64,000 nt of DNA from Acidobacteriota bacterium (lineage in GTDB: Bacteria > Acidobacteriota > Vicinamibacteria > Marinacidobacterales > Marinacidobacteraceae). Below are positions 29,097 through 62,637 of the stretch, piece after piece (position 1 is the first letter of the stretch; every line of letters begins with the position of its first letter). A program made the position numbers and the translations under genes. The notes beneath the pieces were generated by a model. It was not told the origin of the DNA. It searched no databases and saw only the letters and a program-made list of their open reading frames with translations. The stretch spans positions 81,311 through 145,310 of the forward strand of contig VXWI01000036.1 of assembly GCA_009835985.1 (NCBI GenBank), written 5' to 3'.

Positions 29097-31268
29097 TCAG
29101 CCGGGCAGCAGCGAGGTTCCGTCCATCTCCTCCGGCGGGTTGATCCCGAGCAGGTCCAGGACCGTCGGCGCGATGTCCATGAGCGACGCGGGCCCCCGGA
29201 GCGGCAGGTCCGAAGCGAGCACCCCGGCGGTGTCCTCCATGGAGCAGTGGTCCCCGCTCCAGTTGTCCAGGTTCGGGGTGATCACCGACGCGGGCATCCC
29301 TCCCAGCGTGCTCTGCCACCCGATCCGGTAGCCGGGCTCCAGCCCGAGAATCAGGTCGGGCGCCTCCTCCACGAACGGACCCTCGTAGATCTCCTCCCGC
29401 CGGTACACCTCGCGTACCACCAGATCTCCGGTCTCGGGGTCGCGAAACGTCTTGAGGTCGGCGATCAGCCTCTCGATCAGCTGGTCGCGCTCGGGACCCG
29501 GCTCCACGATGCCCTCGGGCTCCCGTTCGCGCTGGTTCAGGTAGATCCCGGAGAGGCCGAGGGCGAAGGCGCTCGTCCGGCTCCAGTCCACTCCGGGGAA
29601 GAAGAGCGCTTCCGGGTCGAACAGGTCTTCGAGCCGGCGCTGTCCCGAGTCCCCGGCCGCCCGCAGATACCCGTTCCGGGCGAGCCAGGTGTTCACGTTG
29701 AACTGCTTCCGGAAGGAGTGGAAGCCGTGGTCGGAGACCACCACGAACCGGGCGCCCGCGGGGGCCGCCGACATCGCCTCGCCGACGATGCGGTCCATCT
29801 CCCGGTAGGCGTCGGCGATGCCGCCGCCGTAACGCCGCGCGAGTTCCGGATCGTGGTTCGGGTGCTCGGGGTCGGCAAACCGGTAGAGCATGTGCTGGAT
29901 GCGGTCGGGAAACAGGAAGACGGACACCAGCAGACGCCAGGAGTCATCGCCCAGCGCGTCCAGCAGCAGCCTCTCGTTGGATTCGCGGGCGAACCGGGCG
30001 TCCTCGAGGAAGGCGTCGAAGTCCACCGCCTCGTCGCGCAGCGGGTTGGTGATGATCTTCCAGCCGACGGTCTCATAGGGGCCCGTCCGGCGGGCGAGAT
30101 CCCCCGCGAAGTCCTGGGGGAAGGACAGGTCCACGATGGGTGGCAGCCGCTCGGGATCGAAGTTGATCGGCTCCATGTACACCGCGACGTTCGGTTCGAG
30201 CGACAGCACCCGGAAGCGGACCAGGCCGGACACGCTGATGAGCGGATTCAGCGCGAAGTGGACCGACACGAAGTCGGACCATTCGCCGCTGGCCAGACTC
30301 GCGAACTGGCCGGAGGTCTCGATTTCGAGGCGTTCCCCGACCCGCCGGAAGCGGACCGGGATCTCGACCTCGGGCTGCTCGGCCTCGGTGACCGATACGG
30401 TGAAGTTCCGCGGCCCGCGGACCACACTCTCCGCCACGCCGTCGTCGAAGCGGAGCGGGAAGCGGGTGCCGCCGGTTTCGGTGGACTCCTCGTCGAGGAG
30501 GTCTGTCGTGTACACCGCCCAGAGTCCGAACGACTTTCGGGCGTCCGGGACCCCGAAGCCAGCCAGGATCCGGGTGCCGGGCGACTCCTCGACCGGGAAC
30601 TCCATCGGCGCCTGAAGCGCGATGGTGGAAACGCCCGCCCCACCGGCGATCTTCCAGAAGGCGTCTCCCTGCCGGGCCCGGACCGCCTGGGGAACGGCAT
30701 CCGGAACCCAGGCCGCGAGGAGCGCCGTTCCCGCGGCGGGCACGATCGTCGCCGCCGCCAGCACCGGCCAGCGGTACCGGGGATGGGCGCGCATGCGGTG
30801 GAGCACCCAGCTCGCCACGATGCCCGCGCCCAGGGCGATCACCAGCACGAGGCCCACCCGGAAGGGCGTTCCCGGGAGTTCGCTGGCGGCCTGCCGAACC
30901 AGCGCGATCTGGGGGACGTAGCTGCCCTCCCGTACCTCGAGGAAGTCGAAGATCCCCGTCCGGCCCGGGTTCATGCCGGTCGCGAAGGTCGCCCAGGCCA
31001 CGGGTGACTCGGAGGGTTTGGTGGTCTGGAGCGGAGCGAGCGTTCCACGCTCGCCGAGCCGCCGGAGGTTCGGCAGTTCCCCGGCGGCGATCATGGCGTC
31101 GATGGTGTCCGGATCCGCGCCATCGAATCCCAGCACCACCACCCGTTCCGGCGGTTGCGCCAGGGCCTCGCCGCCCGAGACCGGACCGAACCCGGCGGTG
31201 GCGGCGATCAGCACTCCGAGGATCCGGGCGCGGGACGCGGGTCTCGGTGCCGGGCGCTCGAACTCCAT
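29097..31268 (-). CDS. Alkaline phosphatase-superfamily (nucleotide pyrophosphatase/phosphodiesterase) protein
   Basis: VVLGFDGAD, SESPVAWATFATGMNPG..GIFDF, PDRIQH, VVSDHGF, WSGDH. ATG at 31268. Confidence 0.88.
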   Translation of the reverse strand: MEFERPAPRPASRARILGVLIAATAGFGPVSGGEALAQPPERVVVLGFDGADPDTIDAMIAAGELPNLRRLGERGTLAPLQTTKPSESPVAWATFATGMNPGRTGIFDFLEVREGSYVPQIALVRQAASELPGTPFRVGLVLVIALGAGIVASWVLHRMRAHPRYRWPVLAAATIVPAAGTALLAAWVPDAVPQAVRARQGDAFWKIAGGAGVSTIALQAPMEFPVEESPGTRILAGFGVPDARKSFGLWAVYTTDLLDEESTETGGTRFPLRFDDGVAESVVRGPRNFTVSVTEAEQPEVEIPVRFRRVGERLEIETSGQFASLASGEWSDFVSVHFALNPLISVSGLVRFRVLSLEPNVAVYMEPINFDPERLPPIVDLSFPQDFAGDLARRTGPYETVGWKIITNPLRDEAVDFDAFLEDARFARESNERLLLDALGDDSWRLLVSVFLFPDRIQHMLYRFADPEHPNHDPELARRYGGGIADAYREMDRIVGEAMSAAPAGARFVVVSDHGFHSFRKQFNVNTWLARNGYLRAAGDSGQRRLEDLFDPEALFFPGVDWSRTSAFALGLSGIYLNQREREPEGIVEPGPERDQLIERLIADLKTFRDPETGDLVVREVYRREEIYEGPFVEEAPDLILGLEPGYRIGWQSTLGGMPASVITPNLDNWSGDHCSMEDTAGVLASDLPLRGPASLMDIAPTVLDLLGINPPEEMDGTSLLPG

Positions 31269-31373
31269 GGGCGGGGAGAGGTTACTGCGGCGGGCGGGCC
31301 GCATTCCCGGCCTGCCCGCGCCCACTTTTCCGGGAGCGCTCCGGTGCCGCCCGTCCGGTAGCATTGGGCGGTT

Positions 31374-32684
31374 ATGCCGCTGCCAGGTCACCGACTCCGG
31401 CGTTTCGCCGCCCCGGCGGCGCTCCTGCTGCTTGCGATTCCGGGCCTCACCGCCCAGGAACTCGAGATCCTGCCCGACTACGAGACCGAGATGGCTGCGA
31501 TCACGGCCGATCCCCGGGTCGTGGCCGCACTCGACGACGTGCTCGCGATGGACGAGGAGAACGAACGTCTGCTCATCGAGTTGACGGAGATCGAGGCGCC
31601 GCCCTTCAAGGAAGAGAAACGGGCTCTCCACTACCGCGGACTCATCCGGGAAGCGGGGCTCGACGCGGACCTGGATGAGATCGGCAACGTCGTCGCGCGC
31701 CGGGCCGGGCGGGGAGGAGGCCGGACGGTGGCCGTGGTGGCCCACCTCGACACCGTGTTCCCCGAGGGCACCGACGTCACGGTCCGCAGGGAGGGCGACA
31801 AGCTCATGGCCCCCGGCATCGCCGACGACGCGCGCGGCCTGGTGACCATCCTGACCATCCTCCAGGTCATGGACCGCCACGGACTCGATACCCGGGACGA
31901 CGTGCTCTTCGTGGGATCGGTCGGCGAGGAGGGAATCGGCGACCTCCGCGGGGTGAAGCACCTCTTTCGGGACGGCGGGCCGAGCATTGACGCCTTCATC
32001 GCAATCGACGGCACGACCAACACGCGCGTCCTGAATCACGCGATCGGTTCCCATCGCTACCGGGTGCGCTTCCTGGGTCCGGGCGGGCATTCGTGGGGCG
32101 CGTTCGGCCTCGGGAACCCCGCTCACGCCATGGCCCGGGCCATCAAGCTCTTCGACGACCGGGCCGGGGAGTACGTCACCGCGGGCGCCAGGACGACCTA
32201 CAGCATCGGCCGCATCGGCGGTGGAACCTCGGTGAACTCGATCCCGTTCGAGAGTTGGATGGAAGTCGACATGCGCTCCATGGAACCCGGGCGGCTCAAG
32301 GAGATCGACGCCATCTTCCAGGCCGCGATGACCGAGGCGCTCGCCGAGCAGAACGAGCTGCGGCGCGACGGCGAGGAAATCACGGTGGACATCGAGATGA
32401 TCGGTAACCGTCCCTCCGGAATCGTCCCCATCGACACCCCCCTGATCCAGCGGGCCTTTGCCGCCACCCGCGCGGTGGGCGCCGAGCCCGAGCTCAGCAT
32501 GGGTTCGACCGATTCGAACGTCGCCATCTCGCTCGGAATCCCGGCCACCACGATCGGGAGCGGCGGAGAGGGCTTCGGCGCCCACTCGCTCCACGAGTGG
32601 TGGGCCAACCGGGACGGGCACCTCGGGATCCAGAAGGCGCTACTGCTCGTGCTGGCCGAGGCCGGCTTCGAAGCCGCGAACTAG
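31374..32684 (+). CDS. Exported M20/M25/M40-family metallopeptidase
   Basis: Signal peptide, AHLDTVF, APGIADDARG, GEEG.GDLRG, GPGGHSWG, GSTDSN, AHSLHEW. Confidence 0.9.
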   Translation: MPLPGHRLRRFAAPAALLLLAIPGLTAQELEILPDYETEMAAITADPRVVAALDDVLAMDEENERLLIELTEIEAPPFKEEKRALHYRGLIREAGLDADLDEIGNVVARRAGRGGGRTVAVVAHLDTVFPEGTDVTVRREGDKLMAPGIADDARGLVTILTILQVMDRHGLDTRDDVLFVGSVGEEGIGDLRGVKHLFRDGGPSIDAFIAIDGTTNTRVLNHAIGSHRYRVRFLGPGGHSWGAFGLGNPAHAMARAIKLFDDRAGEYVTAGARTTYSIGRIGGGTSVNSIPFESWMEVDMRSMEPGRLKEIDAIFQAAMTEALAEQNELRRDGEEITVDIEMIGNRPSGIVPIDTPLIQRAFAATRAVGAEPELSMGSTDSNVAISLGIPATTIGSGGEGFGAHSLHEWWANRDGHLGIQKALLLVLAEAGFEAAN

Positions 32685-33178: not shown

Positions 33179-34051
33179 TCAGCGGCGGGCGACCGGGTTC
33201 TCGAGGACCCCGGCCGTCTCGACCTCGACGGAGACCGTGTCGCCCTCGCTCATCGCCTGCGTGGTCCCCGGGGTCCCGGTGAAGATGACGTCGCCGGGCA
33301 TCAGGGTCACGTAGCGGCTCACGTAGCTCACGATGTCGCTCGTGTCGAAGATCAGGTCGCTCGTCCGCTGCTGCTGGACGACCTCCCCGTTCAGCCGGGT
33401 GGTGAGTTCAAGATCGTCGTAGTTGACGCCGCGCGAGATCACCGGGCCGATGGGGCCGTAGGTGTCCGCCGCCTTGGCGCGGAACCACTGGAGATCGGCG
33501 CTCTGCCAGTCGCGTTCGCTGACGTCGTTGCCGGCGGTCACCCCGAAGATGTACTCCTGCGCCGCCTCCACCGGGACGTCGCGCGCCTCCTTGGCGATGA
33601 CCAGCACCAACTCGCCCTCGTAGTGGACGTTGCCGGCGTCCTCGGTCATTTCGATGGCGTCGCCGGGGCCGACGATGCTGGTCGGCAACTTGGCGAAGAC
33701 GCCGGGATAGGGCGCCGGTTCGCGCCCGCCCAGGTGCGAGGCGTAGTTGAGGCCGATGGCGATGACCTTGCCGGGGTCGGCCGGCGCCAGGAGGCTTGCT
33801 CCGTCCCGCGCCACCCGGTCTCCGGTGGGGGCGCCACCCGCCCAGGGCGCCGCGTGGAGCGCCACGATCTCATCGCCCTCGATCCGCCCCCAGGCCGGCG
33901 CGCCCGAGGCGTCCGCAAACCGCACGTACTCGCCGGCCGGCTGGTCGTCCACGGCGAGCGCGGCCGGCTCCATGGGCTCCTCGACGGGTGGAGCCCCGCA
34001 ACCGAGCAGGAACGAGACAGCGATGAGGGTCAGGAAAACGGTTCTGGGCAC
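33179..34051 (-). CDS. Fumarylacetoacetate hydrolase family protein with lipoprotein signal peptide
   Basis: IGLNYASH, HYEGEL, GNDVSERDWQ, KAADTYGPIGP, PGDVIFTGTPG; N-terminal LLGC lipobox. Confidence 0.92.
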   Translation of the reverse strand: MPRTVFLTLIAVSFLLGCGAPPVEEPMEPAALAVDDQPAGEYVRFADASGAPAWGRIEGDEIVALHAAPWAGGAPTGDRVARDGASLLAPADPGKVIAIGLNYASHLGGREPAPYPGVFAKLPTSIVGPGDAIEMTEDAGNVHYEGELVLVIAKEARDVPVEAAQEYIFGVTAGNDVSERDWQSADLQWFRAKAADTYGPIGPVISRGVNYDDLELTTRLNGEVVQQQRTSDLIFDTSDIVSYVSRYVTLMPGDVIFTGTPGTTQAMSEGDTVSVEVETAGVLENPVARR

Positions 34052-34097
34052 GGGAATCCTCCTCGGACGGACCGGAGTGCAGGATATCGGTTAGCGG

Positions 34098-34517
34098 TCA
34101 AGGATTGAGGAGACGGCAGTTTCGGTTGCGGGCGACGATCTCGTACGCGGCGAGTTCGGCGAGCAGGAGAGGGGGCAGGACATAGGCGGCCACCACCAGG
34201 AAGCGGGCCGGAAGACCCGTCCAGCCGGGTGGGGCAGCGTGCAGGAGGAACCGGTTGACCGCGAAGGCCCCGCCGTGGAACGTGCCGCGGGCGTCCCGGA
34301 AACGGACCCGCTTCTCGCACGCGCTCCGTGAAACGCCCAGTTGCCGCAGCTGGTCGTCGGTCAGTTCCTGATGCGCGACGAAACGGACCGGCCGGTCTTC
34401 CGCGAAGCGGGCCGCCGCGACCGCGGCGCGCGCGCAGAACCCTCAACCGCCGTCATAGATGACGACGGGAACCCCATCCGCGAAACGTGCGTCCGGCCGG
34501 GGAGCGCCCGAACTCAA
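34098..34517 (-). CDS. DCC/DUF393-family thiol-disulfide oxidoreductase, candidate selenoprotein (UxxC; in-frame TGA at 34443-34445)
   Basis: TTG start overlaps the upstream stop (TTGA). Translation: MSSGAPRPDARFADGVPVVIYDGG-U-GFCARAA...GGAFAV...YEIVARNRNCRLLNP. The YDGxCxxC and YxxVARNR family motifs lie on either side of the TGA. Confidence 0.8.
34413..34428 (-). promoter_or_regulatory. Putative bacterial SECIS hairpin
   Basis: mRNA +15..+30 after the UGA: CGCCGC-GGUC-GCGGCG, a 6-bp GC stem with a GGUC loop. Confidence 0.65.
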
Positions 34518-34798
34518 CTGAGATCGAGCCGGGGGGTGTCCCGTCCGCTTCCGTTGAAGCTGTTCTCCGGATACCGGCGCAGCAGCCAGACGCGAAAGAT
34601 CCCCACGCCGAGCCCGATCAGCACGGTGCCGAGGAGCAGCGTTCCGGCGAGGGCGAAGGATTCGAGGATGAGCGTCAGGATGCCGCGTTCCGGTTCCTCG
34701 CTCGGGAGCGTGACGTACTCGACGACCTGCCGCTGCTGGAGCATGGCCCGGGAAGCGAGGGAGTCGAGGAAACCGAACGGCTGGATCATTCCGGACAT
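34514..34798 (-). CDS. Small single-pass membrane protein
   Basis: Hydrophobic segment ILESFALAGTLLLGTVLIGLGVGIF; its stop overlaps the start of the DCC gene. Confidence 0.65.
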   Translation of the reverse strand: MSGMIQPFGFLDSLASRAMLQQRQVVEYVTLPSEEPERGILTLILESFALAGTLLLGTVLIGLGVGIFRVWLLRRYPENSFNGSGRDTPRLDLS

Positions 34799-34829: not shown

Positions 34830-35597
34830 TCACCCGATGTTTCGGATTGTAGCGGGCGACCCGGCTGGACTGGCGATGCGGTCCAGGGAACGGTGCAGGG
34901 AGCGTTCGATGCGCTCGGTCAGCGGCGCGGTGTCGAAGCGGAAGGCGCGCGACACGTCCTCGCGAATGCCCGGCGCGTCCTCCACCTCGAACCAGATCGG
35001 CGGCTGGTCGTCGGCAAGGGCAAAGAAGGTGAGCATCAGGTGCGCCACCCGGAAGTTGGCGCGTTCGAAGGGTGAGATCTCGAGGAAGCGGGCAAAGAAG
35101 AGCGCCGCGCGCGGTGCGGTTTCGAGATCGCGCCCGCTGGCGCCCGAGACCCACTCCAGGAGGTTGCCGAGCCGGAGCGCCACGGTCTGCGGCGGCGAGA
35201 GACCGGCTCCCTGAAACTGCGGTTCGATCTGTTGGGTGCGGAAGGGGCTTGCTCCGGCGAGGCCGGCGGAGACGGCGTGCAGCTCACCGATCAGCTCCTC
35301 GGTGGGGTCGCGTTCGGCGGCAGCGTTTCCGATGAGCCCGAGGGCCCCGAGGGCCGGACCGAACGCGGGGGTTGGCGCACCCCGGCGCGCCGCCTGAATC
35401 TCCGGTTCGGTCAGGGCCGTCCCGGTCAGCTGCAGCGTCGCGCGGGCCGCCTCCACCACCAGCTCCCCCCGGCCGGAACGCCACCGTTCGCTGCCGGTCT
35501 GCGCCCGGACCCGGTCGCGCCGCGCGCGGATTTCCTGTCCGGGCCCCTGGGGACGCGGCGCCCCCGTGCCCGGGTGAAGCGGCAGGGTCTCGCTCAT
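34830..35597 (-). CDS. Fic-domain protein with degenerate catalytic motif
   Basis: ELH...PFRT, AALFFARFLEISPFERANFRVAHLML aligns with the Fic HPFxDGNGRxxR helix. Confidence 0.65.
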   Translation of the reverse strand: MSETLPLHPGTGAPRPQGPGQEIRARRDRVRAQTGSERWRSGRGELVVEAARATLQLTGTALTEPEIQAARRGAPTPAFGPALGALGLIGNAAAERDPTEELIGELHAVSAGLAGASPFRTQQIEPQFQGAGLSPPQTVALRLGNLLEWVSGASGRDLETAPRAALFFARFLEISPFERANFRVAHLMLTFFALADDQPPIWFEVEDAPGIREDVSRAFRFDTAPLTERIERSLHRSLDRIASPAGSPATIRNIG

Positions 35598-35722: not shown

Positions 35723-36526
35723 GTGCTCGCCCGCCGGATCATTCCCTGTCTCGATGTGAAGAACGGCCGGGTGGTCAAGGGCGTGCGCTTCCAGAACCTC
35801 ACCGACGAGGGGGATCCGGTGGAATGCGCCGTGGCGTATGGCGCCGCCGAAGCGGACGAGTTGTGTCTCCTCGACATCACCGCCACCTGGGAGGCGCGCG
35901 GGACCGCGTTGAACACCGTCGGGCGCGTCGCGGAAGCGCTCACCATTCCCTTCACGGTCGGAGGCGGGGTGCGCTCGGTCGCCGACATGGACAACCTGCT
36001 CCGGGCCGGCGCCGACAAGGTCTCCCTGAACAGCGCCGCGGTCGCGCGGCCGGAACTCCTCGCCGAGTGCAGCCGCCGGTTCGGGTCCCAGTGCCTGGTG
36101 CTCGCGGTGGATGCCCGCCGCACCCCGGGAGGCGGGTTCGAGGTGGTGGTGGCGGGAGGACGGATCCCCACCGGACGGGACGCCATCGAATGGCTTCGGC
36201 GCGGCGAGGATCTCGGCGCCGGGGAGATCCTTCTTACCAGCATGGACCGGGACGGAACAACGGACGGCTATGACCTCGAGCAACTCCAGGAAGCGACCGA
36301 GGCCGTCTCCGTGCCGGTGATCGCCTCCGGCGGCGCCGGTCACCCCTCGCACCTGGCCGAGGTCTTCGAAACGACCGGCGCGAGCGCGGCGCTCGCCGCG
36401 TCCATCTTCCATCGCGGCGTTCACCCGGTTGCCGAGGTGAAGCGTTTCCTCGCCCGGCGGGGGATCCCGATCCGTCCGCCGGAAAGCGACTTCTTCACCG
36501 TTCCCGAACCCACTGTCGCTCAATGA
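35723..36526 (+). CDS. hisF: Imidazole glycerol phosphate synthase cyclase subunit
   Basis: [39 protein letters not shown]. Confidence 0.97.
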
Positions 36527-37185
36527 AACCGAAGGTCAAGTGGAACGAAGCCGGCCTCGTTCCGGCGGTGGTCCAGGACGCGATGAGCGGCCGCATCCTC
36601 ATGCTCGCCTGGATGAACGCGGAGGCCCTGACCCGGACGATCGAGAGCGGGCGGGTTCATTTCTGGTCGAGGAGCCGCCGGACCCTCTGGAGGAAGGGCG
36701 AGACTTCGGGCAACGAACTCCATCTCCGCTCCCTGACCGCCGACTGTGACGGCGACGCCCTCCTGGTGCAGGCGGACCCCGCCGGTCCGAGCTGTCACAC
36801 GGGCCGGACATCGTGCTTCTTCGAGCCGGTGGCGGAGGGAGGCGAAGCTCCGGAATCCGCGTCCGCTCTCGAACTTGGCCCCGCGCTCGGCGCGCTGACC
36901 CGGATTGTCCGGGAACGCGCGGTGAGTCGTCCCGAGGGCTCCTACACGGCGGCCCTGCTCACGGCGGGCACCCCTCGGATCGCCCAGAAGGTGGGCGAGG
37001 AAGCCGTCGAGGTGTCGCTCGCCGCGGTCTCCGGGTCAGCCGGCGAGGTCGTGAACGAGTCCGTGGATCTCCTCTACCACCTGCTCGTCCTGCTCGAGGC
37101 GCTTGGAATCGACGGGCGGGAGGTGGCGGCGGAGATCACCCGCCGGTTCCCCGCCCAGGGTTCCTCAGCGGACCGAGACCCCTAA
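36523..37185 (+). CDS. hisIE: Bifunctional phosphoribosyl-AMP cyclohydrolase/phosphoribosyl-ATP pyrophosphatase
   Basis: [43 protein letters not shown]. Confidence 0.96.
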
Positions 37186-62394: not shown

Positions 62395-62469
<75 letters not shown>

Positions 62470-62637
62470 CCGGATTGGGGTTCGGGCCGCGACACCGGCG
62501 GCCCGTTCTGGTGCGAAGACGCCCCGTTCGGCCCCAACCGGTTCCATGAGCCCTCCCTTTCCCGGGCAAGCGCGGCCAGACAAGGCGCACCACGGCCCCG
62601 CGTCTTCCTCGGCAGACCGTCCGGGCGGGAGCATTCC

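Follow-up and report, generated by a model that had tools for sequence, protein, structure and literature searches.

A gene on the minus strand of a 64,000-nt stretch of contig VXWI01000036.1, from an Acidobacteriota genome of the class Vicinamibacteria, is very probably an intact selenoprotein gene in which an in-frame UGA at codon 25 encodes selenocysteine (Sec). The stretch is referred to here as the window and its genome as G000; coordinates of the gene and its neighbors are window positions. The product would be a small DCC1-like protein of the DCC/DUF393 family (PF04134) whose DxxCxxC motif has Sec where the first Cys would stand. Because the TGA falls on this Cys column, a hairpin resembling a bacterial Sec insertion sequence (SECIS) lies at the canonical place behind it, and the genome contains a complete Sec pathway, Sec is proposed at codon 25. 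The original prediction, made from the window alone, had read the locus as a Sec-containing DCC protein. This reading is supported by the pairing of TGA with Cys among relatives, the hairpin, the Sec machinery, and purifying selection on the frame. Every outcome that the original prediction had named as refuting was looked for, and each check favored the prediction.

The Reading Frame and Its Start

The gene and its principal elements are as follows.

34098..34517, minus strand: Sec-type DCC1-like coding sequence (CDS), 139 residues, then the TGA stop (34100-34098); PF04134 with U read as C
34515..34517, minus strand: TTG start; overlaps the stop of the upstream 94-aa open reading frame (ORF), a TGA, by two bases (TTGA)
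34443..34445, minus strand: in-frame UGA, proposed Sec codon 25; TGA in 16/16 genomes of the genus, TGC in 12/12 sister-genus orthologs
34434..34454, minus strand: active-site motif D22-G-G-U25-G-F-C28, a DxxCxxC motif whose CxxC part reads UxxC, U being Sec

Read from 34517 to 34098, the frame is L/M-SSGAPRPDARFADGVPVVIYDGG-TGA-GFC...YEIVARNRNCRLLNP-TGA, and its single internal stop is the TGA at 34445-34443. Twenty-four sense codons, ending in ...VVIYDGG, precede this codon, and 114 sense codons, beginning with GFC, come after it. The minus-strand frame, the lone stop at codon 25, and the 114 codons beyond it are all borne out as first described. The same holds for the TTG start overlapping the upstream stop, which is the sole in-frame ATG, GTG, or TTG between the preceding stop and the internal TGA in the window. 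Its AGTTGA context is kept 21-27 codons 5′ of the TGA in 15/15 full-length orthologs. The overlap suggests translational coupling of the DCC gene with the 94-aa ORF. The gene is missing from the table 11 ORF listing because no in-frame start occurs within 82 codons 3′ of the TGA.

Family Membership and the Active-Site Motif

The DCC family, which includes Bacillus subtilis YuxK, reportedly has its founding description in Ginalski et al. 2004. With U read as C, the window protein matches PF04134 over residues 19-133 with 43.3 bits, above the Pfam gathering threshold of 27.8, and with 31.9 bits in a six-frame search in which the stop is read through. Assignment to DCC/DUF393 therefore stands on a score above threshold and on a DxxCxxC motif in which Sec replaces the first Cys. 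The TGA column is the invariant first Cys of DGxCxxC in 13 Cys-bearing relatives, where tblastn pairs ...IYDGG*GFC... with ...IYDGGCGxC.... The column is likewise invariant in a 44-sequence family alignment that takes in 24 diverse DCC proteins of the phylum, in agreement with the predicted location of the TGA at the first Cys. The seven invariant positions of this alignment are D22, G23, C25 (here U), C28, P115, Y125, and R132. The ortholog group has an extra invariant Cys67, which is absent from the wider DCC family.

An AlphaFold2 model built from 44 sequences (mean pLDDT 69.8, pTM 0.64) places a strand at residues 18-21, then the UxxC motif, and then a helix at 26-38. A strand (45-48), two helices (54-60 and 64-69), two strands (72-74 and 80-82), and a helix (84-94) follow, and two further helices (99-113 and 115-130) form the C-terminal end. 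The order of secondary structure is thus b-a-b-a-a-b-b-a plus two C-terminal helices. The top Foldseek matches in the PDB are all glutaredoxin (Grx), thioredoxin (Trx), or protein disulfide isomerase (PDI) domains, with a best E of 0.027, and the model is consistent with a thioredoxin- or glutaredoxin-like fold. A sequence search of the PDB returned no solved structure matching the protein.

G000 also has a Cys-type DCC1-like paralog (locus L086; C50:13509-13733, minus strand), which matches profile positions 1-78 of PF04134 with 45.3 bits. It lies inside a 518-codon open frame, and similar matches occur in most congeners. From its frame, it is possibly a fusion protein.

Conservation of the TGA and of the Downstream Frame

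The TGA is not private to G000. Sixty-one related genomes, one per species, were searched in six frames with stops read through, and each of the 16 genomes of the window's genus has an ortholog with exactly one TGA. The G015 copy is divided between two contig ends, with the TGA on the N-terminal piece; with this split gene left out, the full-length Sec-type set comprises 15 genes. All 12 genomes of six other genera in the same taxonomic family have a syntenic ortholog with no stop and a TGC codon for Cys at this position. Outside the family, an ortholog is present in 1/33 genomes (27 of the same order and 6 of the same class), in a Cys form with no stop.

The 15 full-length TGA genes share 71-98% pairwise nucleotide identity. 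Over codons 26-132, the median dN/dS is 0.119 (range 0-0.274) at a median dS of 0.88, with 104 of 105 pairs usable. These values indicate that purifying selection acts on the sequence 3′ of the TGA. None of the 15 genes has a frameshift or a further stop. The terminal stop alternates between TGA, TAA, and TAG among orthologs, and codon 25 is invariably TGA; TGA therefore works as a normal stop in this lineage, which sets codon 25 apart.

The TGA is the same in other assemblies: in three public runs, one from each of three other studies, contigs span the gene with no listed difference in 34098-34517. Together with conservation across species, this agreement rules out both a sequencing error and a nonsense mutation private to G000. 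Most runs containing the stretch are labeled as sponge metagenomes. A metagenome scan for divergent Sec forms yielded 21 loci, comprising 18 distant Cys-type and 3 Sec-type loci; the latter carry the same invariant block described below, with no new hairpin variation.

The SECIS-like Hairpin

Two elements downstream of the UGA are of interest.

34413..34428, minus strand: proposed SECIS apical hairpin, nt +15 to +30, CGCCGC-GGUC-GCGGCG with a 6-bp stem
34408..34430, minus strand: 23-nt invariant block spanning nt +13 to +35, with no difference among the 16 TGA genes even at synonymous positions

The hairpin has the sequence and position that the original prediction gave it. In the bacterial SECIS (bSECIS) model, the apical loop has 3-9 nt with a G in its first two positions and lies 16-37 nt from the UGA, the upper stem has 4-16 bp, and the minimum free energy (MFE) is ≤ -7.5 kcal/mol (PMC13188914). 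The window hairpin agrees with the model on every count: its 4-nt GGUC loop begins 20 nt after the UGA, its stem has 6 bp, and it folds alone with -10.8 kcal/mol.

Synonymous sites flanking the 23-nt block on both sides vary. Among 80 degenerate codons whose amino acid is invariant, 15 are monomorphic, and these include 7/7 in codons 30-36 versus 8/73 elsewhere (2/48 at four- and six-fold degenerate codons). The excess in codons 30-36 gives a Fisher p of 2e-6 and a run-of-7 permutation value of 1e-4. Relatedness does not explain the invariant block because the comparison is made within one gene and one phylogeny. The pattern suggests that selection acts on the RNA at the hairpin block. All six pairs and the loop are kept in 15/15 full-length Sec genes. 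In the Cys orthologs, 0/12 have all six pairs (2-5 are kept) and 0/12 have a GGTC loop. Conservation of the hairpin, named beforehand as a check on the prediction, therefore follows the codon: it is found in every TGA form and in no Cys form.

Sec Machinery and Other Selenoproteins of the Genome

The components expected of a Sec user, tRNA-Sec, selA, selB, and selD, are all found in G000, whose assembly has 124 contigs and is 93.9% complete. The tRNA-Sec scores 69.7 bits and is called by ARAGORN as tRNA-SeC(tca); this call is the firmer evidence, as the Rfam tRNA-Sec model fires in control genomes too. The selA (489.9 bits), selB (291.7 bits), and selD (252 bits) matches are all above curated cut-offs. 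The selB match, at C46:217-1305, lies near the contig start and covers profile positions 1-345. A separate 21-bit selB match to positions 535-577 is located at C6:511-639, and the selB gene may be split by the assembly. Furthermore, selA is present in 28/28 genomes of the taxonomic family, and the Cys-type genera are therefore also Sec users.

A script was also run over G000 to pick out TGA codons with open, coding-like frames on either side; its result is not exhaustive, since the DCC gene itself did not pass the composition filters. It yielded three further genes of known selenoprotein families (loci L083-L085), each with the TGA at the redox motif, as follows.

G000 C17:43408: AhpD-like, TIGR01926, 146 bits, motif CHYU
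G000 C51:23575: CYCXC, NF041379, 99.1 bits (cut-off 90), motif USTC
G000 C65:51115: PDO_seleno_TRX, TIGR02187, 183.2 bits (just under the cut-off of 185), motif UPWC

The hairpins of these genes have stems of 6-7 bp and loops of GGUCU, GUC (or GGUCC), and GUC, respectively, which begin 17-20 nt after the UGA as counted by hand on the sequences. By this comparison, the DCC hairpin looks like the SECIS elements already used by the organism, and the three genes point to Sec machinery that is in use and recognizes hairpins of this type.

Two 'UGSC' candidates, at C28:2245 and C48:13572, were rejected without a family scan, having been read as a stop, a ribosome-binding site, and the in-frame ATG of the next gene. 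Both are paralogous gene pairs whose junction mimics 'UGSC' when read through: the TGA stop is followed by a GGGAG-like ribosome-binding site and then by an ATG in the same frame. Such junctions are likely a false-positive trap for Sec scans.

Proposed Mechanism and Alternative Explanations

In the proposed mechanism, the UGA at codon 25 would be followed, inside the CDS, by the G+C-rich hairpin, whose GGUC loop would serve as a bacterial SECIS. SelB-GTP with Sec-tRNA(Sec) would bind the hairpin and deliver Sec as the ribosome reaches the UGA. The product would be a DCC1-like protein of ~139 residues in which U25-G-F-C28 leads into the first helix of the modeled beta-alpha-beta-alpha-beta-beta-alpha core. 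It would most likely be a thiol-disulfide-type oxidoreductase cycling between the selenol/thiol and selenenylsulfide states; U25 would be the nucleophile and C28 the resolving residue. SelB binding, the identity of residue 25 as Sec, the redox chemistry, and the Cys/Sec direction of change are what we infer from the comparisons described here.

Several results weigh against this interpretation or fail to help it. Covariation gives the hairpin no backing, with compensatory changes at 0/17 predicted pairs and observed scores reached by 500/500 shuffles; the evolutionary support for the hairpin is invariance only. Its folding energy is ordinary for a sequence of 69% G+C (z -0.07), and 92/200 shuffles fold as well. 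The element of Escherichia coli fdhF is validated and is also ordinary in folding energy (z -0.67), and this unremarkable z was used as the yardstick. The stem register favored by the MFE fold is offset by one pair and has a 7-nt loop, so the exact stem given here is provisional. An Rfam scan of 34000-34600 at E ≤ 10 returned no SECIS family; three snoRNA-like matches in this region were set aside as chance. On the protein side, Foldseek found no match in the PDB at E ≤ 0.001 with a model of medium confidence. The only RNA run among those listed, X20 (a small share), contains the flanks only, from relatives 90-99% alike; the gene is uncovered in it and the run is uninformative.

The alternatives differ in how they treat the UGA. 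The gene could be a pseudogene, that is, a Cys-type DCC gene with a nonsense mutation and a decaying frame after it. Its omission by table 11 ORF calling and its presence in public protein sets as fragments only would fit this explanation. It is nevertheless extremely improbable given a TGA in 16/16 species at a median dS of 0.88, a downstream dN/dS of 0.12, 15/15 full-length genes free of frameshifts and further stops, an invariant 23-nt block 3′ of the TGA, and a conserved start-stop overlap with the upstream gene. The locus could instead yield two products if translation stopped at codon 25 and the C-terminal part were made separately from an internal start, giving 85-aa products. A TTG lies 32 codons past the TGA in 11/15 orthologs, and databases contain 78-100-aa products beginning in that area. 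However, the first in-frame start of the window gene is 83 codons past the TGA, and the TTG at +32 is also missing in three other orthologs (L024, L025, and L036). In this case, codons 26-56 and with them the second active-site Cys would go untranslated, yet these codons are conserved at the protein level with variable synonymous sites outside the hairpin. The 85-aa product would also lack the entire DxxCxxC motif, which is invariant in the family. Two separate products are thus hardly credible.

Readthrough of the UGA without Sec is very unlikely too, but deserves slightly more weight. Cys or Trp could be inserted by near-cognate decoding or SelB-mediated misinsertion, or a low level of readthrough could be regulatory, as in a selenium-dependent attenuation of a redox gene; these variants share the same low probability jointly. 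Cys can be inserted at Sec codons under selenium scarcity, and the residue at codon 25 of the DCC protein is deduced from sequence. Against non-Sec readthrough stand the complete Sec pathway, a SECIS-type hairpin at the canonical distance, the same loop type in the three known-family selenoprotein genes of the genome, and the coincidence of the TGA with the redox-active Cys column, the usual position of Sec. Insertion of Sec at codon 25 remains the favored interpretation.

Origin of the Sec Form and a Second TGA-Bearing Lineage

The 15 Sec sequences fall into a single group (support 94/98), nested among Cys sequences, in a maximum-likelihood tree of 27 orthologs and one order-level Cys relative. 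A single change suffices in 96% of bootstrap trees, in a tree whose root rests on one very long branch and whose bootstrap is not fully settled. For these sequences, the most parsimonious history has Cys changing to Sec once, at the base of the genus.

A PF04134 search of 55 genomes of the order gave 75 matches, 16 of which contain one TGA. These are the 15 genus orthologs and one gene in G036, a genome of another family. In the G036 gene (C298:100-570), the TGA occupies the first-Cys column and xxC comes next; the gene scores 32.4 bits against PF04134 with U read as C. Searched against 301 genomes of the class, it recovered one more copy, in G646, a genome of a third family, with 69% protein identity. 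The G646 copy (L102:1510-1902 on C47) also has a TGA at the first-Cys column and scores 34.7 bits with U read as C. The G036 genome is unpublished, and the G646 copy stands independently of it. NCBIfam gave no match for this lineage, and a Cys-type homolog of the subtype was not found in the 301 class genomes at E ≤ 1e-6.

Over 63 nt from the UGA, the G036 and G646 genes differ at 8 positions, none of which is in nt 13-36 or 38-50. These two segments fold as a hairpin whose loop lies ~27 nt after the UGA. Both selA and tRNA-Sec are present in G646; in G036 (83% complete), tRNA-Sec is present and selA was not found. Like the window gene, the second lineage scores above the PF04134 cut-off, has its TGA at the same first-Cys column, and retains a conserved downstream stretch. 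Unlike the window gene, it does not have Asp at -3, and its hairpin has another loop at ~27 nt from the UGA. The window protein as a query gave no match to the G036 gene at E ≤ 0.001.

A wider PF04134 survey of the phylum covered 401 genomes, 220 of which have a match (the tallies include the unpublished genomes G083 and G209). Among the 150 matches listed, there is no TGA and one TAG; 107 weaker matches lie beyond. The survey cannot exclude further Sec forms because TGA-bearing matches score low and the 107 weaker matches fall outside the list.

On balance, these data lean toward DCC/DUF393 being a selenoprotein family that is uncatalogued in the sources checked and in which Sec was gained at least twice within Vicinamibacteria. 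The first gain would be recent, a switch from Cys to Sec at the base of a single genus that occurs in sponge metagenomes. The first helix, which is alanine-rich and G+C-rich, would already have supplied 2-5 of the 6 stem pairs, and the stretch that encodes it would then have been fixed as a GGUC-loop SECIS matching the organism's other selenoprotein genes. The second gain would belong to the divergent lineage seen in two distantly placed genomes.

Comparison with Known Systems

Like E. coli fdhF, the window gene has an in-frame UGA and an intra-CDS hairpin with a GGUC apical loop, and it would need tRNA-Sec, SelA, SelB, and SelD. The GGUC loop of fdhF starts 18 nt after the UGA in the MG1655 record, compared to 20 nt in the window gene, so the likeness to fdhF remarked on in the original prediction is confirmed. 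Unlike fdhF, the window gene encodes a small UxxC redox protein and not a molybdopterin enzyme. Its stem is also a perfect 6-bp G+C helix, whereas the upper stem of fdhF has a bulged U.

Selenoproteins with a UxxC motif in a thioredoxin fold are already known, and the DCC protein would be a new addition to them. As in catalogued members, Sec would stand for the N-terminal Cys in a CxxC-type motif that precedes the first helix (in the model), and Cys orthologs exist. The catalogued group includes Trx, Grx, the AhpF N-terminal homolog/PDO (TIGR02187), Prx-like, DsbA-like, and other proteins (PMC13188914). The TIGR02187 protein of G000, with its UPWC motif and GUC-loop hairpin, is one such protein encoded in the same genome. 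Unlike these selenoproteins, the DCC protein belongs to PF04134, has an invariant Asp three residues before Sec, and possesses a long helical, partly hydrophobic C-terminal extension.

Among Cys-type proteins, Arabidopsis DCC1, which has a DxxCxxC motif, is described as a thiol-disulfide oxidoreductase whose reduction target is carbonic anhydrase 2 of complex I (PMC7598583). The window protein resembles Cys-type DCC1-like proteins in scoring above the Pfam cut-off and in keeping the invariant residues of the family. It differs from them in that its first Cys is specified by UGA and in its membership of an ortholog group with Cys67 and a 6-8-residue insertion (the APPGWTG region).

Novelty and Annotation

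The DCC family is probably a real selenoprotein family that has escaped cataloging. Neither PF04134 nor DCC has an entry in Table 1 of a May 2026 catalog of 119 prokaryotic selenoprotein families and subfamilies (PMC13188914). No selenoprotein model of NCBIfam release 20 matched the protein; a stray PrdB match reached 15.9 bits against a cut-off of 300. The earlier suspicion that DUF393 is not a standard selenoprotein family is upheld by its absence from both sources. The main texts of deep-Sep (PMC12013277) and BSepDB (PMC13326102) contain no DCC, DUF393, or PF04134, although their supplements could list it. A full-text literature search returned no paper linking the DUF393/DCC family with selenoproteins or selenocysteine, and none containing COG3011. 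Papers on the DUF393/DCC family show no selenoprotein topic in their titles and abstract openings, among the matches listed.

A collection of 5.8 billion proteins gave 24 matches at E ≤ 1e-10. Nineteen are C-terminal fragments of 78-100 aa that lack a Pfam domain and are unnamed or labeled 'hypothetical protein', and the remaining five are full-length Cys-type proteins with PF04134. Five fragments inspected (among P0002-P0025) start 32-39 codons past the UGA; the starts of P0002 and P0005 coincide with the internal TTG present in 11/15 species. The Sec-type gene is mis-annotated, appearing only as fragments in public protein sets.

Gene Neighborhood

The DCC gene is part of a four-gene block on the minus strand, whose other members are the following.

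34830..35597, minus strand: Fic/DOC-family gene at the upstream end of the block, PF02661 26.6 bits (cut-off 24)
34514..34798, minus strand: 94-aa ORF, whose stop overlaps the DCC start; one long hydrophobic stretch
33179..34051, minus strand: downstream fumarylacetoacetate-hydrolase (FAH)-family gene, PF01557 208.2 bits, syntenic in 27/27 loci

A homolog of the 94-aa ORF lies immediately 5′ of the DCC gene in 27/27 orthologous loci. The ORF matched no Pfam family and may be a membrane partner of the DCC protein. The Fic-family gene is found in 26/27 loci, and the remaining locus stops at a contig end. Because the Fic, 94-aa ORF, DCC, and FAH neighbors are shared in 27 full loci, the DCC genes are positional orthologs. 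The N-terminus of the FAH-family protein can be read as putatively lipoprotein-like.

Upstream of the block, two overlapping plus-strand ORFs at 35723-36526 and 36523-37185 are candidates for hisF and hisIE by their translations. A 1174-codon open frame at 29097-32621 (minus strand) overlaps a 436-aa ORF at 31374-32684 (plus strand), and at least part of the longer frame is probably a high-G+C artifact. Near the window end, ARAGORN calls a tRNA-Met (cat) at 62395-62471 (plus strand).

Significance

A gene missed by standard ORF calls proves to be a functional-looking selenoprotein gene. If the interpretation is correct, the widespread and poorly characterized DCC/DUF393 family would join the families able to use Sec. 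Since Sec marks redox-active residues, its position would be independent evidence that the first Cys of DxxCxxC is the catalytic nucleophile of DCC proteins. The split between Sec and Cys forms in sister genera with identical gene context provides a well-controlled case of recent Cys-to-Sec conversion, and the coding changes that would have given rise to the SECIS can be seen by comparing the orthologs. Being syntenic, the Sec and Cys orthologs would offer a natural system for the birth of a SECIS inside a CDS and for the benefit of Sec to a DCC enzyme.

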